Assembly: GCA_964507075.1 (NCBI GenBank)
Contig: CAZDOL010000014.1
Coordinates: 5,094-12,108 of the forward strand
Reading direction: 5' to 3'
Length of the DNA stretch: 7,015 nucleotides
DNA from: an uncultured Gammaproteobacteria bacterium
Lineage (GTDB): Bacteria; Patescibacteriota; Patescibacteriia; UBA2591; UBA6264
The translations under genes and the position numbers were made by a program. Below the pieces are notes generated by a model. It was not told where the DNA came from and ran no database searches. It worked only from the letters and a program-made list of their open reading frames with translations. Shown here piece after piece: positions 1 to 6,856 of the stretch; the stretch's first letter is position 1, and each line of letters begins with the position of its first letter.

Positions 1-36
1 TCGCTTTTTTATTTGGAGATAAAATTATTGATTTTT

Positions 37-555
37 ATGTTTAATAAGAAATATTCCAATAGCAAGGCTTTCACTATTATAGAAATGATGGTAGTTTTAG
101 GCATTACAGGTCTTCTGGCCGCTCTGTTAATAGCTAATATGCATTCTGGAGGAGAGGGAATGGATTTGACTTCTGAGGCGCAGAAATTAGGAGTGGTTAT
201 TCGCCAAGCCCAGATGATGGCATTGGCTGGTAAGCAAATTAATTTGAGCCGCCCGGCTTATGGTTACGGTGTTTACATTGCTTCCATGTCTTATAAGCTT
301 TTTGCGAATGATTATGATGGGGCTTCTTATTTATATGATGATGGTGATGATACAATCATTCAGTCTTTTTCTTTTCCCGATAATATAGAAATGAAGGTTC
401 CTGCAGCTGCTTTCTCTATTATTTTTACACCTCCATTAGGCGAGATAGAAGCTTCTGTTGCTCTTCCACTATATGTTACACTAACCCATGTGCCAATTAA
501 TTTAAGTAGATTTCTAAAAATTACTTCTTATGGAGAAGTTGATATTTATAAATAA
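37..555 (+). CDS. Prepilin-type N-terminal cleavage/methylation protein; GspH/FimT-FimU-like minor (pseudo)pilin
   Basis: The ORF track gives 13..555 from a TTG. The first ATG, at 37, yields MFNKKYSNSKA|FTIIEMMVVLGITGLLAALL: a short basic leader, F at +1, E at +5 and a ~20-aa hydrophobic helix, which is a class III (prepilin) signal. It has Ala rather than the usual Gly at -1. The following LTSEAQKLGVVIRQAQMMAL resembles the GspH/FimT helix. Stop is TAA at 553-555. The start is ambiguous (13 or 37). Confidence 0.8.
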   Translation: MFNKKYSNSKAFTIIEMMVVLGITGLLAALLIANMHSGGEGMDLTSEAQKLGVVIRQAQMMALAGKQINLSRPAYGYGVYIASMSYKLFANDYDGASYLYDDGDDTIIQSFSFPDNIEMKVPAAAFSIIFTPPLGEIEASVALPLYVTLTHVPINLSRFLKITSYGEVDIYK

Positions 556-1090
556 AAAAGGTCAGAGTTTAATTGAATCAGTGGTAGCTATTTCTATTGT
601 GGTTATTGCCGTGGTAGGCATTATGTCTGTTGGGTTAACCAGCATGAGTTTAGGTGGACAATCAGAGGAAAGGGTTGTGGCTATTAATTTAGCGCGAGAA
701 GGCATAGAAATTGTTTCTGCCACTCGTAATAGCAATCTTTTGGACCCAGAACAATCTTGGCCTTATGGATTAACCATTGGTTCATATAGGGTTGGATTTG
801 ATCTAGCTGGTTTAGTTATGGGTGCGGATGCTGAATTTGATGGAGGCACTACTGTGGAATATTGCACCAATTGTCGCCTTTGTCAGGATGCTGCTGCTGA
901 ATATTATTATCACAATGATAGTTGCTCTACATGGAGTCCTTTTTATAGATTAGTTGTTATTTCTGCTGGTGATGATTTGGGCGGGAATTGTGATGATTGC
1001 GAAAAAAAGATTATTTCTTCTGTTTATTGGGAAGAGAGGGGCAAAGCGCATACCATTAGCTTTGAAACTCGTTTTACTGATTGGAGATAG
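530..1090 (+). CDS. Prepilin-type minor pilin, PilV/GspI-like, Cys-rich C-terminal half
   Basis: MEKLIFINKKG|QSLIESVVAISIVVIAVVGI has G at -1, E at +5 and a hydrophobic helix. It overlaps the upstream gene by 26 nt, suggesting operon coupling. VVAINLAREGIEIV resembles PilV-type minor pilins. Six Cys lie at aa 112-157 (CxxCxxC...C...CxxC). Stop is TAG at 1088-1090. Confidence 0.8.
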   Translation: MEKLIFINKKGQSLIESVVAISIVVIAVVGIMSVGLTSMSLGGQSEERVVAINLAREGIEIVSATRNSNLLDPEQSWPYGLTIGSYRVGFDLAGLVMGADAEFDGGTTVEYCTNCRLCQDAAAEYYYHNDSCSTWSPFYRLVVISAGDDLGGNCDDCEKKIISSVYWEERGKAHTISFETRFTDWR

Positions 1091-1092
1091 AG

Positions 1093-1135
1093 ATTGGGTA
1101 ATTGGGTACCTAGGTGCTCGGGTAATCAGGTAATT
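1093..1135. repeat. G-rich repeat arm, copy 1 (attgggta x2 followed by gggtacctaggtgctcgggtaatcaggtaatt)
   Basis: Positions 1104-1135 are 30/32 identical to 2133-2164. Positions 1096-1122 are 22/27 complementary (ungapped) to 1513-1539. The arm lies between the ORF2 stop (1090) and the ORF3 ATG (1143). Confidence 0.85.
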
Positions 1136-1142
1136 AAAAATT

Positions 1143-2129
1143 ATGTCAACAGGTTTAGATAATTTAGAAATATATAAATTAGCTGAGAAGCTGGAAGTTT
1201 TTATTTATAAACTGAGTAAAAAATTTCCAGATGACGAAAAATATCGCACAGTTGACCAACTAAACAGATCATCTTCTGCTGTTTCTAACAACATTGCTGA
1301 AGGATATGGTAGATATTCTTTTCAAGATAAAATAAATAAATTTTATATTGCTCGAGGCGAAGCTGAAGAAACGCGGAAAGGTATAAACAAAAGCCATAAG
1401 AAAGGTTTTGTTTCTGTAAAAGAAGCTGATTTGTGTGATAAAAATTATACACAATTGATAAAACAGATTAATGCTTATATTAATTTTTTACGTCGTCAGC
1501 AAAATCCCAATCCCCAAGTACCCAAGTACCCAAGTACCCACAATAAGGGTTTCACCCTTATTGAACTTATGGTTTCTTTGGGTATTTTGGTTGTGGTTAT
1601 TCTTTCGGCTATGGGTATTTATTTGCGGGTAATTGGAACCAGAGAGCAATCTTTGGGAGACCTTAATATTCAAGAAGAAGGGCAATATATTATGGGTTTG
1701 ATAGTTAAGGATATTCGGGCTGGGCAGATTGATTATAGTTCTTATGTGGGGGATTTGGATGAGCCCGAAGATGATCTTATGCTTCTGGATTCTTCTAGCG
1801 ATGAGATTAGATACAAGAGTGATTTGGCTGGTAGTGGAAGTTGTACTCAAAATAGGTGTGTTTTAAAAAAATGCAAAGGACTGATTGTTGATGATTATTG
1901 TGACGATGATAATAATTATGAAGACATTACTATGACTGACATTAGTATTGAACGATTGGATTTTTATATCAACCCAACAAGCAATCCTTTCACAGCCGGT
2001 TCGGAAAGCTATAATCATCCCCATGTCACTATTATTTTAGAGCTTAAATCTTTAGTAGCAAAAAGTGCCACTACAGCTGAAGTCGTTCTTCAGCAAACGG
2101 TTTCCCAAAGATACACAAAAAGAAAATAA
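1143..2129 (+). CDS. In-frame fusion: four-helix-bundle protein (23S rRNA intervening-sequence protein / Avd-like family) + PilW/GspJ-like prepilin
   Basis: aa 1-~120 carry hallmarks of the four-helix-bundle family and its normal full length (LEIYKLAEKL..., SSSAVSNNIAEGYGRYSFQDKINKFYIARGEAEE, ...QINAYINFLRR). No stop follows. aa 121-135 (NPNPQVPKYPSTHNK) are encoded by a nucleotide repeat. Then comes G136|F137TLIELMVSLGILVVVILSAMGI, a textbook prepilin cleavage/methylation motif with E at +5, followed by QEEGQYIMGLIVKDIRAGQ (PilW/GspJ-like). No in-frame ATG/GTG/TTG exists between 1488 and 1551. Confidence 0.75.
   Translation: MSTGLDNLEIYKLAEKLEVFIYKLSKKFPDDEKYRTVDQLNRSSSAVSNNIAEGYGRYSFQDKINKFYIARGEAEETRKGINKSHKKGFVSVKEADLCDKNYTQLIKQINAYINFLRRQQNPNPQVPKYPSTHNKGFTLIELMVSLGILVVVILSAMGIYLRVIGTREQSLGDLNIQEEGQYIMGLIVKDIRAGQIDYSSYVGDLDEPEDDLMLLDSSSDEIRYKSDLAGSGSCTQNRCVLKKCKGLIVDDYCDDDNNYEDITMTDISIERLDFYINPTSNPFTAGSESYNHPHVTIILELKSLVAKSATTAEVVLQQTVSQRYTKRK
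1502..1540. repeat. C-rich repeat arm, copy 1 (aaatcccaatcccc + cccaagta x3.5)
   Basis: Its first 23 nt (aaatcccaatccccaagtaccca) are identical to 2236-2258. An 8-nt unit cccaagta is tandemly repeated at 1513-1520, 1521-1528 and 1529-1536, with a partial copy at 1537-1540. It is the approximate reverse complement of the G-rich arm. It is translated as NPNPQVPKYPST inside ORF3. Confidence 0.85.
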
Positions 2130-2132
2130 GTC

Positions 2133-2164
2133 GGGTACTTAGGTACTCGGGTAATCAGGTAATT
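2133..2164. repeat. G-rich repeat arm, copy 2
   Basis: gggtacttaggtactcgggtaatcaggtaatt is 30/32 identical to 1104-1135. It starts 4 nt after the ORF3 stop. Confidence 0.85.
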
Positions 2165-2205
2165 AGTTATTTATTAGAATAATTAGAATAATTTTACTAT
2201 GTCAT

Positions 2206-2967
2206 ATGTTATTAGATATATTTTTAAAAAAATTTAAATCCCAATCCCCAAGTACCCAATCCCCAAGCAACCAGTCTATCTCTTTAATTATCACAGTTCT
2301 TATTATTTCTTCTATTTTGGTTAGCACTATTACTGTTGGAGATGTTATGATTAGACATAGTCAAACAGTGAAAAGCTCTGAGGTTTCAGAAATTGCTTAT
2401 TTTGCTGCGGAAAGCGCTTTAGAAAAAGCGAGTTATGGAATTTTAAAGAATTACGATAATGTTTCTTCTTATACTTTAAGTGGCAGTATGACCAACACCG
2501 CGAAATACGAGGTTACTGATGTTAGTTTAGACAACAGGACTCCTTTAATTCCTTTTGAAGTGACCTTAGGAGCAGGCGAATCTTTTGAATTAGCATTAGA
2601 TTTTAATGGCACAAATATTTATCCACTAATTTTAAACATTGACCAAACAGCTTCTGTTTCAACAGATTTAATCATTTATGAATGTCTGACCATTGCTGTG
2701 CCTCCGCCTCCTCGTGTTTGCGATTCAGGATATACTCAGACATTTGTTTCTTCCTTGCCTTATAATTTAAGCATTTCAGAAGAGACAAAATATTATAAAA
2801 TTCGCATCAATAACTTGGATGCATCTGATTCAGAAACATATACCTTAACCCCAAGCGCGGACAATATTCCCGTAGGAGTTGACATCACTGCAAAAGGGGT
2901 TTATGGGGGATATGAAAGGCAAGCTAAGAGCAGTTTTCCCAAATGGCAGACTTTTGGAACTGACTAA
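2206..2967 (+). CDS. PilX/GspK-like pilus assembly protein (N-terminal TM helix, no Glu5)
   Basis: MLLDIFLKKFKSQSPSTQSPSNQS-ISLIITVLIISSILVSTITVG is a basic leader plus one hydrophobic helix lacking E at +5, as in GspK/PilX. The later SEIAYFAAESALEKASYGI resembles the conserved A-x-x-AE-x-G/A helix of PilX N-terminal domains. It is fourth in an H-I-J-K-like gene order. Stop is TAA at 2965-2967. The ATG lies inside the AT-rich spacer of a repeat pair. Confidence 0.7.
   Translation: MLLDIFLKKFKSQSPSTQSPSNQSISLIITVLIISSILVSTITVGDVMIRHSQTVKSSEVSEIAYFAAESALEKASYGILKNYDNVSSYTLSGSMTNTAKYEVTDVSLDNRTPLIPFEVTLGAGESFELALDFNGTNIYPLILNIDQTASVSTDLIIYECLTIAVPPPPRVCDSGYTQTFVSSLPYNLSISEETKYYKIRINNLDASDSETYTLTPSADNIPVGVDITAKGVYGGYERQAKSSFPKWQTFGTD
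2236..2268. repeat. C-rich repeat arm, copy 2
   Basis: aaatcccaatccccaagtacccaatccccaagc shares a 23-nt identical core with 1502-1524. aagtaccc (2250-2257) is the perfect complement of gggtactt (2133-2140). It is translated in ORF4 as KSQSPSTQSPS, a different reading frame from copy 1. Confidence 0.85.
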
Positions 2968-2996
2968 TAAAACTGCTGTTATTTTTGTTGTTTTTC

Positions 2997-3005
2997 TGAT
3001 ATAAT
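2997..3005 (+). promoter_or_regulatory. Extended -10 promoter-like box (TGaTATAAT) upstream of the small ORF
   Basis: ctgatataat matches TGnTATAAT exactly and lies 34 nt upstream of ATG 3039. There is no good -35. In an AT-rich genome such boxes also occur by chance. Confidence 0.3.
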
Positions 3006-3038
3006 AATGTTATTATATAAACATAATAGAGAAATAAT

Positions 3039-3338
3039 ATGTCTTTGCCTGGATTTTTACAATCATGTTTTTGGGATGTGGATTTTGATAAGCTGAACCC
3101 CCAAGAATATCCTTATTTTGTCATAGAAAGAATTTTAGAATATGGAAATAAAAAAGACATAGGTTGGTTGGCTAAGAATTTCCCTAAAAACACAGTTAAA
3201 GAGACAATTATTAGTTCTCGTTTTCTTAGCCCCAAAAGCACTAATTTTTGGGCTTTGGTTCTTAATTTAGATAGAGATAAGGTTTTATGTTTGAAAAAGT
3301 CATCAACGAAAAAACAAAACAAAATTTGGTCACATTAA
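3039..3338 (+). CDS. Small conserved hypothetical protein (99 aa)
   Basis: A clean ORF with its own upstream TGnTATAAT box and a downstream hairpin. The N-terminal FWDVDFDKLNPQEYPYFVIERILEYGNKKDIGWL...SRFLSPKSTNFWALVL looks to me like a widespread small protein family of unknown function. I recall it being catalogued as a DUF (possibly DUF6922) but cannot verify that here. The antisense ORF 3113..3322 is its shadow. Confidence 0.6.
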   Translation: MSLPGFLQSCFWDVDFDKLNPQEYPYFVIERILEYGNKKDIGWLAKNFPKNTVKETIISSRFLSPKSTNFWALVLNLDRDKVLCLKKSSTKKQNKIWSH

Positions 3339-3346
3339 CTAATCAG

Positions 3347-3378
3347 TGAAGTGTTGAAGTCAGACTTCAACAACTTTA
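3347..3378 (+). terminator. Stem-loop 9 nt downstream of the small ORF (possible terminator or processing site)
   Basis: gttgaagtc-a-gacttcaac (3353-3371) is a perfect palindrome. It is extendable, with one bulge, to 3347-3378 (~14 pairs). Only a short T tract (ttt) lies at its 3' side, so it is not a classical intrinsic terminator. Confidence 0.3.
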
Positions 3379-3396
3379 CGCAAATTACTTAGTTTT

Positions 3397-3451
3397 GGGC
3401 GATTTTTTGCCAAATCGGAAAATTGCCCTTAAAACCCACACGAGCAAGGGC
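3397..3451 (+). promoter_or_regulatory. Two mutually exclusive hairpins in the leader of the fibre gene
   Basis: Hairpin A pairs gggcgatttt (3397-3406) with aaaattgccc (3419-3428): 9 Watson-Crick pairs plus 1 G-T, with a 12-nt loop. Hairpin B pairs gccctt (3425-3430) with aagggc (3446-3451). A and B share 3425-3428, so they cannot form together. Confidence 0.3.
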
Positions 3452-3477
3452 TTTCAGAGCGTCACTTTTGGGGGACA

Positions 3478-3507
3478 GTCCCCTTTAATAAAGTCCCCTT
3501 TAATAAA
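3478..3507. repeat. 15-nt perfect tandem duplication (gtcccctttaataaa x2)
   Basis: Direct reading shows 3478-3492 identical to 3493-3507, ending 7 nt before the ATG at 3515. It is preceded by the palindrome ggggac-a-gtcccc (3471-3483). Confidence 0.9.
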
Positions 3508-3514
3508 AAGATTT

Positions 3515-6013
3515 ATGAATAACTCGCAAAATATAAAATCTTTGTTTTCTGAATTTAGTCGAGTTTGTTTTAAGTCAAAGTTTAACTTTTGGCTTTTTTT
3601 CTTTATTTTCCTTTTTTTATGTTCCAATGTTCCAATGTTCCAATGTTCTAATGTTTTAGCTTGGACTCCGCCACAAAGTCCTCCGCCTCAAGATAATGTT
3701 CCTCAGCCTTTGAACACAGGACCAACCGCGCAAGGCAAAACAGGCAGTTTGGGTATTGGCACAGATACTCCAACAGTAAAATTAGATGTTTTGGGGATTA
3801 TAGAATCTACTGGAGCTATTACCAGCGGAGGACGAATTACTGGTACTGAATTTTATGATTATCTAGGCGGTTATCTTGACCCTGGTTCTAGTGGTATATC
3901 TCTCTATGTTCTAGGTTCAATTACTGCCACTGGAACAACTGATGATAATTATTTTTTGGGTAACTTGGGAATTGGGACCACAGTTCCAGACACACTTTTA
4001 ACAATAGCCAATGATAATTGGATATCAGCAAAAGATAATGCTGGTACAAGCTATGTAAATATGTTTAAAGTTAATGCTTCTGATGAAATAGATGTAGGAG
4101 GAACTTTAAATGTTGGACCCATAGATTTAGCAGAAGATTCAGGAGCAATTACTCTTGTTAATCTGCCTGTGAGCTCAACTCCAAGTGATGGAGATATTGA
4201 AAGTTATGGTTTTAGCATTGATTCAAATCCCGTTTTAACAATTTATGGATTAGCAGATGGAATAGGAGGTGCTGACACGCATAGAATAGGTATTGGAACA
4301 ACGTCTCCGCAACACAAATTAGATGTTCGCGGTGAGGTTGCTGTTGGCGTGGCTGGCGCGACAAATCAAATTCATTTTGTTGCCGATCCTACTGCCGACA
4401 CAGACGTGGCAACAAAGGGATATGTTGATGGCGCGGGATATTGGGGAGTAACTGGCTCTTATCTTTATCCAACTAATCTTAATTATTTGGTTGGCATAGG
4501 CATTGCTACCCCGAGCGCTAAATTAGAAATTGATGGTGGTGTTCGCGCTTCAGAAGATATTATGACTGATACAGAATTAAAAGTTGGGGCGAATACATGG
4601 ATTGGCACTTTAAGTGCTCAGATTGTAGGGAATTTAGGATTGATAGATTCGGGTGATTTAACTGTAGCGGGTGAGGGTTTTTTTGATGGCGAAGGGGACA
4701 GTTATTTTTTGGGTAATTTGGGAATTGGGATTAGCGCGCCAACAAAGGGCAAATTAGAGGTAGATGGCAATATTGCTATTGGCGGTTCTAATAATGAATT
4801 AAGATTTTATGAAGGAGTAAATTATGTAGGTTTTGAGGCGCCCGCTTTAACAGCTGATAAAATATGGGTTTTACCAAGCATAGATGGCTCAAGTGGACAG
4901 GTAATAAAAACCGATGGCGCTGGAAATTTAAGTTGGATTAGCCATAATGGCTTAGATGGATTGGACGGCGGGACCACTAATGAATATTATCATCTTGATA
5001 ACACCGATTATACTGCTTTAAGTGACGCCAATGCTCAATTAGGAGATTTACAAACAGACGGTTCTCCAAGTTTTAATGGTTTAACAATTGGTACATTATC
5101 TGGGGTTTTAAAAGCAACAACGGGTGTTGTGTCTGGTAGTGCCACGATGGATGATATTGATGACGGGACAACTTATGTCAGAAGCCATAACGACTTCACA
5201 GATATTTATAAAGGATATTTAAACCAGGGAGTAAGAGATATTGATGACCCGATTTTTGCGGGGTTAACTGTTGATACTGATACTATTTATGTTGATAGTA
5301 CAAATCATTTCGTCGGTATCGGAACGACGGAGCCAGGGTATGAATTAGATGTTCAGGGGACGATTTATACTACAGGCTTTTATTTAAATGATGGTAATGC
5401 CACCGCAGGCAAAGTTTTGGTGTCCGCTAATACATCAGGGCTTGCCTATTGGCAAGCCCTTGGTACAATCTCTGGCATCACATGTGATGAGGCTGGCAGT
5501 TGTAGTTCAAATTATATTCCCAAATTTATTACTTCAAGCACTGTCAATGATAGTATAATTTACGAATCTGGTGGGCAAATTGGCATCGGGACTGTGATTC
5601 CACAAGCAAAATTACATGTTGACGGAAGCATTAAATCTACCAGTTTAGAAACAGGCGGACTTAAAGTAACAGATAGCCCAGGTCTTAATAAAGTTTTAAC
5701 TGATTTAGATGGAGCAGGCACAGCAGTTTGGACAGATGTTTCAGGTGGCGCTGATAACGATTGGGTAATAGTAGGCACAGATTATATATATAATTACGAT
5801 TCATTAAATAGAAGCGTTGGAATTGGGACAACGAATCCGGGAACTGCTAAACTGGCTGTTATGAACGGCAACGTCGGTATTGGCACGACAACTCCAAACG
5901 CAAAACTACAGGTGAAAGCTGCCGTTGCAGAGGCAATTGTTGAATTTACAGATGATGACGGCACTGATGTAATGCAAATTGATGCCAACGGCAATGTTAT
6001 AATTTCGTTATAG
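3515..6013 (+). CDS. Large secreted tail-fibre-like repeat protein (putative surface fibre/adhesin)
   Basis: The ORF is open from TTG 3395. ATG 3515 gives MNNSQNIKSLFSEFSRVCFKSKFNFWLFFFIFLFL...VLA|W, a signal-peptide-like N-terminus, then a Pro-rich linker (TPPQSPPPQDNVPQP). Nine copies of the motif (L/V)GIG(T/I)xxPxxKLxVxG follow, at ORF-track aa 119, 191, 297, 365, 441, 639, 728, 807 and 826. Three copies of G-x-V-(L/I)-x-x-D/N-x-x-G-x-x-x-W are also present (SGQVIKTDGAGNLSW, AGKVLVSANTSGLAYW, NKVLTDLDGAGTAVW). This composition is typical of phage tail-fibre-like and bacterial fibre proteins. Stop is TAG at 6011-6013. Confidence 0.85.
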   Translation: MNNSQNIKSLFSEFSRVCFKSKFNFWLFFFIFLFLCSNVPMFQCSNVLAWTPPQSPPPQDNVPQPLNTGPTAQGKTGSLGIGTDTPTVKLDVLGIIESTGAITSGGRITGTEFYDYLGGYLDPGSSGISLYVLGSITATGTTDDNYFLGNLGIGTTVPDTLLTIANDNWISAKDNAGTSYVNMFKVNASDEIDVGGTLNVGPIDLAEDSGAITLVNLPVSSTPSDGDIESYGFSIDSNPVLTIYGLADGIGGADTHRIGIGTTSPQHKLDVRGEVAVGVAGATNQIHFVADPTADTDVATKGYVDGAGYWGVTGSYLYPTNLNYLVGIGIATPSAKLEIDGGVRASEDIMTDTELKVGANTWIGTLSAQIVGNLGLIDSGDLTVAGEGFFDGEGDSYFLGNLGIGISAPTKGKLEVDGNIAIGGSNNELRFYEGVNYVGFEAPALTADKIWVLPSIDGSSGQVIKTDGAGNLSWISHNGLDGLDGGTTNEYYHLDNTDYTALSDANAQLGDLQTDGSPSFNGLTIGTLSGVLKATTGVVSGSATMDDIDDGTTYVRSHNDFTDIYKGYLNQGVRDIDDPIFAGLTVDTDTIYVDSTNHFVGIGTTEPGYELDVQGTIYTTGFYLNDGNATAGKVLVSANTSGLAYWQALGTISGITCDEAGSCSSNYIPKFITSSTVNDSIIYESGGQIGIGTVIPQAKLHVDGSIKSTSLETGGLKVTDSPGLNKVLTDLDGAGTAVWTDVSGGADNDWVIVGTDYIYNYDSLNRSVGIGTTNPGTAKLAVMNGNVGIGTTTPNAKLQVKAAVAEAIVEFTDDDGTDVMQIDANGNVIISL
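3619..3658. repeat. 8-nt tandem array (atgttcca x3, then atgttcta, atgtttta) inside the signal-peptide coding region of the fibre gene
   Basis: Units lie at 3619, 3627, 3635, 3643 and 3651. They encode CSNVPMFQCSNVL. The unit length is not a multiple of 3, and each unit carries an ATG, so ATGs fall in all three frames. Confidence 0.9.
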
Positions 6014-6032
6014 AAAAATAAAAAAACTGAAG

Positions 6033-6089
6033 TTGACCTCTAACGTTAACCCTAGAGGTTAACTAATCTAAGAGGTTAACTAATCTAAG
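6033..6089. repeat. REP-like hairpin element upstream of the RAYT gene plus 17-nt tandem duplication
   Basis: ttgacctctaacgttaaccctagaggttaac (6033-6063) forms a stem of acctcta (6036-6042) with tagaggt (6053-6059), plus a G-T pair 6035/6060 and a 10-nt loop. gaggttaactaatctaa is repeated at 6056-6072 and 6073-6089. The 18-nt core ttgacctctaacgttaac recurs at 6807-6824. Confidence 0.85.
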
Positions 6090-6107
6090 ATAAATTAGTG
6101 AGTTAGT

Positions 6108-6830
6108 ATGCGAAAAGAACAAATTTTAATAGATGATTTAGTTCATGTCTACAATCGCGGTAGTCGTAAAATGCCTATTGTTTATGATGAGGCTGATAAA
6201 TGGAGGTTTTTAAAAAGTTTATATTATCTCAATGACGAATATGCTCCTGCGAATATTTTTCAACATTTAAAATCGAATATACAACTTGGGAAATATCGCA
6301 ATTTTGAGAGACCAAAAGACTGGCCAGCTTCACGACCATTGGTTAAAATTTTGTCTTATTGTTTAATACCTAATCATTTCCATCTACTTTTAAGGAAAAT
6401 TACAGAAAATGGAATTAGTAAATTTATGGCAAGATTTAGCAATAGTTTTACAAAATATATTAATATTAAGCACGATATGTCTGGTAGATTGTTTCAATGT
6501 TCTTATCAGTCAAAGTTGGTAAAAACCGAAAAAATGTTATGGTACACAGATGCGTATATTCAAGTTTTTAACCCATTTGAACTTTATCCTGGCGGTTTGG
6601 AAAAAGCGACAAAAGAATTTGATAAAGCTTTTAAATTTGCTTTAGAATATCCGTTTTGTAGCTTAGGTGAAAGTTTTGGCAAAAGAAATTTGCATATTAT
6701 TGACAGAGATGTTTTGGGCAAGGTATGGTCTAATATAGCAGAGTATAAAGAATTTGCGCAAGAAGTTATAATATATTACAGTAATAGTAATAGAAAAGTT
6801 TGCAAATTGACCTCTAACGTTAACGTCTAA
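6108..6830 (+). CDS. HUH / Y1 single-strand DNA transposase-like protein (RAYT, REP-associated tyrosine transposase / IS200-like TnpA)
   Basis: It carries HVYNRG near the N-terminus and an HUH motif in YCLIPNHFHLLL (H90-F-H92, nt 6375-6383). It also has GRLFQCSYQSKLV and a catalytic-Tyr motif AYIQVFNP (Y150, nt 6555-6557). These are the conserved blocks of the COG1943/Y1_Tnp family. The stop (TAA 6828-6830) and the last ~8 codons (KLTSNVNV) lie inside the right flanking repeat. Confidence 0.85.
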   Translation: MRKEQILIDDLVHVYNRGSRKMPIVYDEADKWRFLKSLYYLNDEYAPANIFQHLKSNIQLGKYRNFERPKDWPASRPLVKILSYCLIPNHFHLLLRKITENGISKFMARFSNSFTKYINIKHDMSGRLFQCSYQSKLVKTEKMLWYTDAYIQVFNPFELYPGGLEKATKEFDKAFKFALEYPFCSLGESFGKRNLHIIDRDVLGKVWSNIAEYKEFAQEVIIYYSNSNRKVCKLTSNVNV

Positions 6831-6850
6831 GGTTAACCCTAGAGGTTAAC
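6807..6850. repeat. REP-like hairpin element at the 3' end of the RAYT gene
   Basis: ttgacctctaacgttaac-gtctaaggttaac-cctagaggttaac is the same element as 6033-6063 with a 13-nt internal insertion, in the same orientation. It contains the 10-bp palindrome acgttaacgt (6817-6826) and the 8-bp palindrome ggttaacc (6831-6838). The outer stem is 6809-6816 with 6840-6847. Confidence 0.85.
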
Positions 6851-6856
6851 TTCAAA

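Follow-up and report, generated by a model that had tools for sequence, protein, structure and literature searches.

In Coxiella, the intervening sequence (IVS) of the 23S rRNA carries an S23p open reading frame (ORF) within a stem that is cut by RNase III, and the ORF is preceded by tandem heptamers that number three in some strains and two in others (PMC4990558). ORFs of the 23S_rRNA_IVP type are also present in rRNA insertions of the Candidate Phyla Radiation (CPR) (PMC11270868). Here, a gene of this family was examined in a protein-coding operon: in a 7,015-nt stretch of DNA from an uncultured bacterium of the Patescibacteriota (GenBank assembly GCA_964507075.1, contig CAZDOL010000014.1, positions 5,094 to 12,108 of the forward strand; hereafter the window), the 328-aa ORF at 1143-2129 joins a four-helix-bundle (4HB) module to a type IV minor prepilin, and a perfect 8-nt tandem array lies between the two. 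An earlier note, made from the sequence of this DNA, had suggested that the array may be a slipped-strand ON/OFF switch for the pilin. The analysis favored the reading that the 4HB gene and its flanking arrays form a selfish cassette set in the prepilin leader, with slippage as a by-product able to switch the pilin off. All coordinates are window positions unless another locus (L-number) is named, and P-numbers denote related proteins.

By analogy, the locus would act like an S23p IVS combined with a simple-sequence contingency tract. As in the S23p IVSs of Coxiella burnetii, Leptospira and the Xanthomonas XCC0516 family, a PF05635 protein is encoded within stem-forming inverted repeats, copy-variable short tandem repeats (7 nt in Coxiella, 8 nt here) abut the ORF, the GC content is below that of the host, and a selfish passenger would be neutralised by host processing. 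Unlike those elements, the cassette lies in a protein-coding operon, between two pilin ORFs, and because it is outside rRNA it lacks the location that defines an IVS; furthermore, its ORF, which lacks a stop codon, forms a translational fusion with the prepilin that follows, its arms consist almost wholly of 8-nt-periodic units, and the proposed neutralising step is proteolysis by prepilin peptidase rather than cleavage by RNase III. Contingency loci of surface structures include Neisseria pilC with its poly-G tract, opa with CTCTT repeats, and the tetranucleotide repeats of Haemophilus. The present locus shares with them a non-triplet repeat near the 5' end of the coding sequence of a pilus gene, where a change in unit number toggles the frame, and a natural frame-shifted allele in a clonal background; however, it has 3.5 units of 8 nt that appear to be inherited from the terminal array of a mobile cassette, the OFF allele is rare, the tract is imperfect in relatives, and the upstream module would be expressed in both states. 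Type IV prepilins (class III signal peptides) likewise have a (G/A/S)↓F-T-L-I-E motif, a hydrophobic alpha1 helix and an A24 peptidase gene upstream, but their leaders comprise 6-26 hydrophilic residues (PMC4471445), whereas the leader here is 134 aa long and contains a folded four-helix bundle. Inteins and homing-endonuclease genes in self-splicing introns offer an analogy only: there, too, a selfish ORF sits in an essential gene and is tolerated through its removal after transcription or translation, but no self-splicing is involved here, and removal would be carried out by a host protease that already processes the site.

Results

The fusion ORF and its tandem array

Profile searches matched residues 7-116 of the ORF to PF05635 (23S_rRNA_IVP, E 2e-26) and TIGR02436 ('four helix bundle protein', E 1.6e-25), and the closest solved structure to the 4HB was the S23p-type pentamer XCC0516 (PDB 2GSC, E 4e-10). 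Residues 133-156 matched the prepilin profiles N_methyl (E 2e-7) and TIGR02532 (IV_pilin_GFxxxE, E 2.7e-5). In keeping with a prepilin, the (G)↓F-x-x-x-E motif is followed by about 20 hydrophobic residues; the codons for Gly-1, Phe+1 and Glu+5 are at 1548-1550, 1551-1553 and 1563-1565, respectively, and F137, L139, E141 and L142 (F+1, L+3, E+5 and L+6) are invariant in alignment A2. An AlphaFold (AF2) model built from 13 sequences predicted the four helices of the bundle at residues 7-25, 36-54, 60-86 and 92-120 (pLDDT about 80-88), disorder at residues 121-138 (pLDDT <50 at aa 123-133), and a long pilin helix at 139-192 followed by a beta domain. Direct reading of the sequence revealed no ATG, GTG or TTG in frame between the 4HB module and the G↓F junction. 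The GC content of the 4HB ORF is 29%, versus 36-39% in the adjacent genes.

The repeat that the earlier note had placed at 1513-1540, between the 4HB module and the prepilin motif, was recovered by Tandem Repeats Finder (TRF) as CCCAAGTA x3.5 (period 8, 100% matches, score 56), and the domain matches agreed with its placement. The 28-mer of the array had a single match within the window and none in 200 dinucleotide-preserving shuffles when three mismatches were permitted.

Anatomy of the cassette

The array forms most of the right arm of an inverted pair that brackets the 4HB ORF (cassette A; Table 1), and this arm codes for the disordered linker NPNPQVPKYPST. The left arm begins directly after the stop of the upstream pilin gene. 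Stops occur in all three frames of 1088-1142, a segment that includes the stop of the second ORF at 1088, and a Shine-Dalgarno (SD)-like AGGT is located 11 nt before the ATG. Positions 1095-1122 and 1513-1540 are inverted and 82% complementary over 28 nt, and the two arms were paired in both the minimum free energy (MFE) and the centroid structures when 1080-1560 was folded (z -6.0). Only one G-U pair is included in this pairing, so that pairing of RNA and pairing of DNA are indistinguishable.

A second, decayed cassette (cassette B) follows the fusion ORF. Its remnant contains an ATGTCA at 2199 that equals the 4HB start, ATGTCA, at 1143, its positions 2236-2259 are 100% identical to 1502-1525, and its right arm is translated as the leader ...KSQSPSTQSPSNQ of ORF 2206-2967. 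In relatives, the position of cassette B is occupied by an intact cassette (L012, P0016) or by a remnant that keeps MLTGLDN (L017). The fold of cassette B was not significant (z -1.8). An A24 prepilin peptidase gene (PF06750 and PF01478) lies directly upstream of the four pilins in L001 (at 4942-5694), L003, L005, L008 and L011. A search of Rfam at the gathering threshold gave no match in the window, the promoter and terminator scan gave no more than expected by chance, and PADLOC returned no match for the fusion, the DUF6922 protein or the Y1 transposase-like protein described below.

Table 1. Coordinates of the cassettes, the minor pilins and the frame-dependent stop codons in the window.
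Feature	Position	Strand	Basis or remark
GspH/FimT-like minor pilin, first of four	37..555	+	Profile matches; 4HB-fused homologues P0042, P0043, P0049
PilV-like minor pilin, second of four	530..1090	+	Profile match; 4HB-fused homologues P0026, P0054
Left arm of cassette A, five 8-nt-periodic units	1093..1136	+	ATTGGGTA ATTGGGTA CCTAGGTG CTCGGGTA ATCAGGTA
4HB module (S23p / 23S_rRNA_IVP / Avd-like), without its own stop codon	1143..1502	+	PF05635, TIGR02436, 2GSC, AF2
Right arm of cassette A	1502..1541	+	AAATCCCAATCC plus CCCAAGTA x3.5; stop-free in all three frames
Perfect 8-nt tandem array, CCCAAGTA x3.5	1513..1540	+	TRF; x2.5 in L011
Linker-crossing peptide sequences			…FLRRQQNPNPQVPK / YPSTHNK
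4HB stop codon (TAA) of the -1-unit (and +2-unit) allele	1544..1546	+	Simulation; used in L011
Prepilin peptidase motif K-G↓F-T-L-I-E-L-M	1545..1571	+	Profile matches, alignment A2, P0006
Mature minor pilin, PilW position, long N-terminal helix and beta domain	1551..2129	+	Alignment, AF2
TAA that would end the +1-unit (and -2-unit) allele	1630..1632	+	Simulation; allele not observed
Left arm of decayed cassette B, right after the stop of ORF 1143-2129	2131..2165	+	2133-2165 94% identical to left arm of A
AT-rich 70-nt remnant replacing the 4HB ORF in cassette B	2166..2235	+	Sequence reading
PilX-position minor pilin, start codon (ATG 2206) and leader from cassette B	2206..2967	+	ORF; homologue fusions P0016, P0059, P0060
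Degenerate right arm of cassette B, lacking a perfect tandem and free of stops in every frame	2236..2274	+	Repeat comparison

Fused relatives and selection

In different genomes, members of the 4HB clade with the C-terminus QINAYINFLRR were found in in-frame fusions to homologues of each of the four minor pilins: to the first pilin in P0042/L066, P0043 and P0049; to the second in P0026/L022 and P0054/L025; to the third in P0001-5, P0010, L017, L023, L064 and L067; and to the fourth in P0016/L012, P0059 and P0060/L024. Distinct cassettes whose 4HB is >=70% identical were collected by 4HB-only DNA searches or context look-ups, and every one was in frame with the pilin (11/11). Their linkers are 14-45 residues long, rich in P, Q, S and T and encoded by repeats, and none contains Met. 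Among more distant 4HB genes, 1 of 69 read through into its neighbor, the partner being RuvC; in this locus (L073, 896-1756), the sole non-pilin read-through among the 69, a 4HB of 50% identity continues through the repeat arm into a RuvC-like protein (…LQLKNFQTSKLQTVLGVDPGFDRVGVAV…). Furthermore, an exhaustive HMMER search recovered at least 11 further divergent 50%-identity clusters that combine PF05635 with N_methyl and have canonical G↓F junctions, as well as one prepilin of the same build with a GIY-YIG nuclease as its N-terminal extension (P0128, below).

Decayed cassettes (L017, L018 and cassette B of the window) still have an in-frame ATG, either that of the 4HB or one next to it. The fourth pilin of L017 starts with MLTGLDN, the N-terminus of the 4HB, joined directly to the pilin; the third pilin of L018 starts with a left arm, an ATG, five codons and a right arm, and this mini-cassette folds into a hairpin of -27 kcal/mol (z -3.3); P0022 retains the C-terminus of the 4HB. 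Cassette-free pilin orthologues have ordinary leaders of 4-22 residues, with G, A or S at -1.

Within the fused lineages, dN/dS was 0.05-0.13 for the 4HB and 0.11-0.22 for the pilin, ratios that place both halves of the fusion under purifying selection. The dS of the 4HB (0.38-0.61) was a third to a half of that of the fused pilin (1.14-1.15), which is consistent with the cassette having spread more recently or having undergone gene conversion. Together with the lower GC content, the younger dS supports a probable foreign origin of the 4HB.

Other arrangements were observed among the related loci. P0128 (L144, 3001-3879) is a prepilin with an N-terminal GIY-YIG nuclease domain (PF01541, E 1.4e-15); a 15-nt inverted repeat, CCAGCGCCACTTTTA / TAAAAGTGGTGCTGG, flanks its GIY-YIG ORF on both sides, and the repeat's right arm codes for RKSGAG immediately before FTLIEL. 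A 4HB of a bAvd-like subfamily is fused to the third pilin in L142 (3770-6180), where the arms are 7-nt units, GGAATTT / AAATTCC, and the two other pilin 5' ends that were inspected in the same operon (ORF1 and ORF4) bear ORF-less mini-cassettes consisting of a left arm, an ATG, a few codons and a right arm. L065 corresponds to an L022-like operon minus about 713 nt containing the second minor pilin gene; the missing stretch lies between two 116-nt direct repeats (L022 3301-3416 and 4014-4129) made of the 4HB C-terminus plus the right arm, and L065 is explained either by a deletion that the cassettes mediated or by chimeric assembly of a short contig.

4HB cassettes elsewhere in Patescibacteria

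At 41 genome loci in metagenome-assembled genomes (MAGs) of Patescibacteria, most of the stand-alone 4HB genes (117-137 aa) lie between inverted arrays of 7-8-nt units. The unit sequences vary by locus, and include AAGTTTAT/ATAAACTT, CAGTTTAT/ATAAACTG and GGTACTTA/TAAGTACC, among others. Arm complementarity was measured in 36 cassettes (35 of the 41 MAG loci and the window) and exceeded the 95th percentile of shuffles in 28 of them; the mean score was 13.6 for a cassette's own arms, 8.7 for cross-locus pairs and 7.0 for shuffles. Complementarity that is maintained despite differing units points to covariation at the level of the arrays. Arrays flank most of the 4HB genes examined, whether in coding sequence or outside it, and the right arm usually stops a few bases before the ATG of the following gene. 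That gene is often one that we take, from its N-terminal sequence alone, to be rplK (ribosomal protein L11). Cassettes directly upstream of this presumed L11 gene were seen in L037, L039, L043 and L046, and cassettes upstream of a pheT-like gene in L047, L050 and L058.

Unit-number changes in silico and in nature

The earlier note had worked out by hand what gain or loss of a unit does to the frame, and simulation from -3 to +3 units reproduced its arithmetic. Loss of one unit gave a 131-aa protein ending ...PKYPQ at the TAA at 1544-1546, that is, a stand-alone 4HB with the pilin left untranslated, and gain of one unit gave 165 aa, ending at the TAA at 1630-1632. Products of 157 and 139 aa resulted from -2 and +2 units, respectively. 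The fusion was preserved only by three-unit changes, which gave in-frame products of 320 aa (-3) and 336 aa (+3). The -1 product also occurs naturally. In L011 (JGI 3300005645), the same strain from a different JGI sample, the array is x2.5, exactly one unit less; compared to window positions 1-3504, L011 has one single-nucleotide polymorphism (SNP; C204T) and the 8-nt deletion inside the array, and otherwise matches. Gene calls in L011 comprise a 131-aa stand-alone 4HB that ends at the predicted TAA and a 186-aa pilin from the Met after Glu5, encoded by ATG 1569, the sole start remaining for the pilin in this allele. The -1 allele thus uncouples the 4HB from the pilin and leaves the pilin without its start codon.

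A comparison of unit numbers between strains, the check proposed with the switch, revealed this single 8-nt-step difference at the locus. Across ENA, JGI and Logan assemblies, 21 contigs encode the exact fusion protein, so that one OFF contig stands against 21 ON contigs. An exact-sequence look-up among about 15 billion proteins found the fused and -1 products, and no match for the +1, -2 or +2 products. A protein search with the 131-aa stand-alone form collected 41 candidates, which included neither the fusions nor the L011 protein, and a metagenome scan, in which the window's population did not appear, added no unit-count variants of this strain. In a related cassette, L066 and L068 are identical over 1208 nt save one 8-nt unit, in an array upstream of the ATG; this unit difference, with 0 SNPs, indicates that slippage in the arrays far outpaces the accumulation of point mutations. 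In L064 (CCCAAGTACCCAAGCACCCAAGTA) and L018 the tract is interrupted, and in cassette B it is degenerate. Since it is interrupted in relatives and in old remnants, its perfection tracks the youth of the cassette and not selection for mutability. The locus thus has a perfect non-triplet repeat in a coding region, at which a unit change toggles the product in silico, and a unit-number difference between near-identical sequences, as contingency loci do, but a long tract kept perfect across relatives is lacking: there are three full units only.

Other features of the window and of neighboring loci

A 15-nt tandem, AGTCCCCTTTAATAA x2, is located at 3477-3507, just upstream of the gene for a large secreted surface protein of 832 aa (3515-6013). 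This protein carries many copies of G-I-G-T-x-x-P-x-x-K-L-x-V (repeat families D2, D6, D7 and D9) and had no match in Pfam or NCBIfam; in L002, proteins neighboring it carry Laminin_G_3 domains. Its signal-peptide region contains a second 8-nt array, ATGTTCCA x4.6 (3619-3655), which is longer than in its L017 and L018 orthologues by an in-frame expansion of exactly three units, adding CSNVPMFQ. Relatives carry this unit in pilin leaders as well, namely in the ORF1 leader of L017 and in P0009 and P0024. A DUF6922 ORF (3039-3338; PF21956, E 2e-17) is conserved after the pilin cluster at every syntenic locus. The ORF at 6108-6830 encodes an IS200/Y1-type protein resembling repetitive extragenic palindromic (REP)-associated tyrosine transposases (RAYTs), with matches to PF01797 (E 5.5e-6) and, below the cutoff, NF047646 (E 1.3e-6). 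REP-like palindromes with GTTAACCCTAGAGGTTAAC flank it at 6027-6090 and 6801-6854 (36-nt arms, 86% complementary), and they differ from the cassette arms.

The Avd proteins of diversity-generating retroelements (DGRs; bAvd, PF22296) have a homologous four-helix-bundle fold, and the fused relatives P0020 and P0129 also match the bAvd model. In L002 (9919-12129), an FGE-sulfatase-domain protein and an RVT_1 reverse transcriptase are encoded in a DGR-like arrangement on the opposite strand, about 9 kb past the pilin cluster; the window contains no reverse transcriptase. Unlike avd, the 4HB gene adjoins no reverse transcriptase, template repeat (TR) or variable repeat (VR), and is bracketed by arrays and fused to a pilin. 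A TR/VR pair was sought in L002 6800-12129 and not found; the search returned only a 46-nt palindromic repeat in three copies, at 10834, 10879 and 11218. The idea that the 4HB is the Avd of the L002 DGR was set aside on this basis.

Discussion

The reading that we favor, with a probability of about 0.68, is that a selfish cassette occupies the leader of a prepilin, from which it is presumably released by the adjacent peptidase, and that slippage is a by-product able to switch the pilin off. The cassette would consist of the 4HB gene and two inverted 8-nt-periodic arrays, set in the 5' end of a minor-pilin gene. Its left arm would halt incoming translation in every frame and bear the ribosome-binding site, and the 4HB ORF gives the pilin its only ATG. 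With no stop in the 4HB ORF and none in any frame of the right arm, ribosomes would run from the 4HB into the prepilin; read from the sequence, translation that begins at the cassette start must pass through the P/Q/S/T linker into the prepilin. The product would be a prepilin with a 134-residue 'leader' that remains in the cytoplasm. Since the leader peptides of prepilins are cytoplasmic and are cleaved on the cytoplasmic face (PMC4471445), we infer that the A24 prepilin peptidase cuts at G↓F, giving a normal mature pilin and a free cytoplasmic 4HB. Such cleavage would make the insertion harmless, as excision by RNase III does in rRNA. The in-frame state of all 11 close cassettes, set beside read-through in 1 of 69 more distant 4HB genes, indicates that the fusion is selected. 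The array slips because the right arm is a perfect non-triplet tandem repeat, and selection for the in-frame state would keep slippage in check. Slippage is thus most likely a by-product of the architecture of the cassette, and the array is probably not an evolved ON/OFF device, though able to act as one.

Several observations weigh against this reading. The -1 allele means that a population is able to carry the uncoupled state. On reading the sequence, no direct duplication was seen at the borders of the cassette (1088-1092 / 1542-1546), and no transposase was found within it. Translation of the fusion and its cleavage are both inferred steps, the leaders of described prepilins have 6-26 aa (PMC4471445), and a 4HB that is folded and probably pentameric might interfere with targeting to the membrane or with access of the peptidase. 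Many fusions have Ser or Ala, not Gly, at -1, as do non-fused orthologues of the clade. Lastly, if RNase III cut the stem formed by the arms, the ATG would be severed from the coding part of the pilin.

This last point leads to the strongest competitor, an unlikely one in our judgment, which partly overlaps with the selfish-cassette reading: the element would be excised as an IVS at the RNA level, with RNase III cutting the arm stem and freeing a monocistronic 4HB mRNA, the fusion being rarely translated and the pilin made by another route. The pairing of the arms in the MFE and centroid folds (z -6.0), the hairpin of the L018 mini-cassette (-27 kcal/mol, z -3.3) and the covariation of arm complementarity across loci are what such a process would produce, and there are precedents in the RNase III excision of the S23p-bearing Coxiella IVS (PMC4990558) and in the 23S_rRNA_IVP ORFs of CPR rRNA insertions (PMC11270868). 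A cut would, however, leave the pilin with neither ATG nor SD, yet the pilin is under purifying selection and its frame is conserved; moreover, the fold of cassette B is insignificant (z -1.8), and with only one G-U pair the arms do not distinguish RNA from DNA pairing. Less probable again is the dedicated slipped-strand switch raised in the earlier note, in which the perfect tract is kept for reversible ON-OFF of the pilin and of piliation while the 4HB is expressed throughout. The capacity to switch stood: a perfect non-triplet repeat lies in the 5' part of a gene for a surface structure, unit changes shift the frame as predicted, a -1 allele is found in nature against a near-clonal background (1 SNP in 3.5 kb), the related array of L066/L068 provides a second unit-number polymorphism, and the stretch encoding the signal peptide of the large surface protein contains a further 8-nt array (ATGTTCCA x4.6). 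The dedicated function did not stand as well. The array is the terminal arm of a cassette, like arrays accompany 4HB genes in non-coding positions, such as upstream of the presumed rplK, and the ATGTTCCA array stays in frame, since exactly three units separate it from its orthologues. The in-frame state is kept in 11/11 cassettes, OFF is seen on 1 contig versus 21 ON, and +1, -2 and +2 alleles are absent among the 15 billion proteins. Evolved phase variation is therefore less likely, because the tract is short (three full units), imperfect in relatives (L064, with CCCAAGTACCCAAGCACCCAAGTA, L018 and old remnants), rarely OFF, and explained by the architecture of the cassette.

It is improbable that 4HB and pilin form a genuine domain fusion in which the bundle serves minor pilins as a functional pro-domain or chaperone. 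Recurrent fusion with four pilin paralogues and in very divergent lineages, and the strong conservation of the 4HB, would fit such a role; however, the same family is also found in rRNA insertions, in one fusion to RuvC, and in stand-alone cassettes that precede the presumed rplK, pheT-like genes and others, and an unrelated GIY-YIG nuclease takes the same position in another prepilin. Furthermore, orthologous pilins that lack the 4HB have ordinary leaders of 4-22 aa, the cassettes decay by deletion, and the 4HB has a lower GC content and a younger dS than the host gene. Least credible is the alternative, also raised in the earlier note, that the junction or the unit count is a sequencing or assembly artefact or a minority variant. 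Tandem repeats are prone to mis-assembly, and the -1 allele is known from a single contig; but the 28-nt tract is far shorter than reads and assembler k-mers, L011 is otherwise near-identical, and an independent 8-nt indel occurs in L066/L068. Because the ten contigs that were fetched, from three independent assembly pipelines, were all identical at both arms, including the array (10/10), the unit count is not an artefact, and this explanation was rejected on the identity of the fusion across independently assembled contigs.

A broader proposal, which we put forward tentatively and at something short of an even chance, is that small selfish genes in Patescibacteria find a safe harbour, at the protein level, in the prepilin leader: they would be translated as an outsized leader and cut off in the cytoplasm by the host prepilin peptidase, a proteolytic counterpart to the removal of such elements from rRNA by RNase III. 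Its passengers may, with the same reservation, be S23p/Avd-like four-helix bundles and at least one GIY-YIG nuclease, each supplying the start codon. In the literature searched, no earlier account was found of prepilins that carry a fused PF05635 or GIY-YIG module, nor of CPR 4HB cassettes flanked by tandem arrays, which is not proof of novelty. Such fusion genes are currently named merely 'four helix bundle protein', which is a problem for annotation.

If the proposal is correct, the S23p/Avd-like proteins known from rRNA intervening sequences would also inhabit protein-coding genes, and a new route by which selfish insertions are tolerated, through removal by an existing processing protease, would be added to those known. 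The range of known prepilin leaders would grow from about 26 to >130 residues and include a folded domain. As the cassettes end in non-triplet arrays, their insertion would make minor pilin genes hypermutable for ON/OFF shifts, and the cassette repeats would also enable recombination between pilin genes. The ends of the cassettes would thus be a source of ON/OFF variation, and possibly of recombination, in minor pilins. These subunits prime the type IV pili on which CPR episymbionts depend to contact their hosts and to take up DNA.

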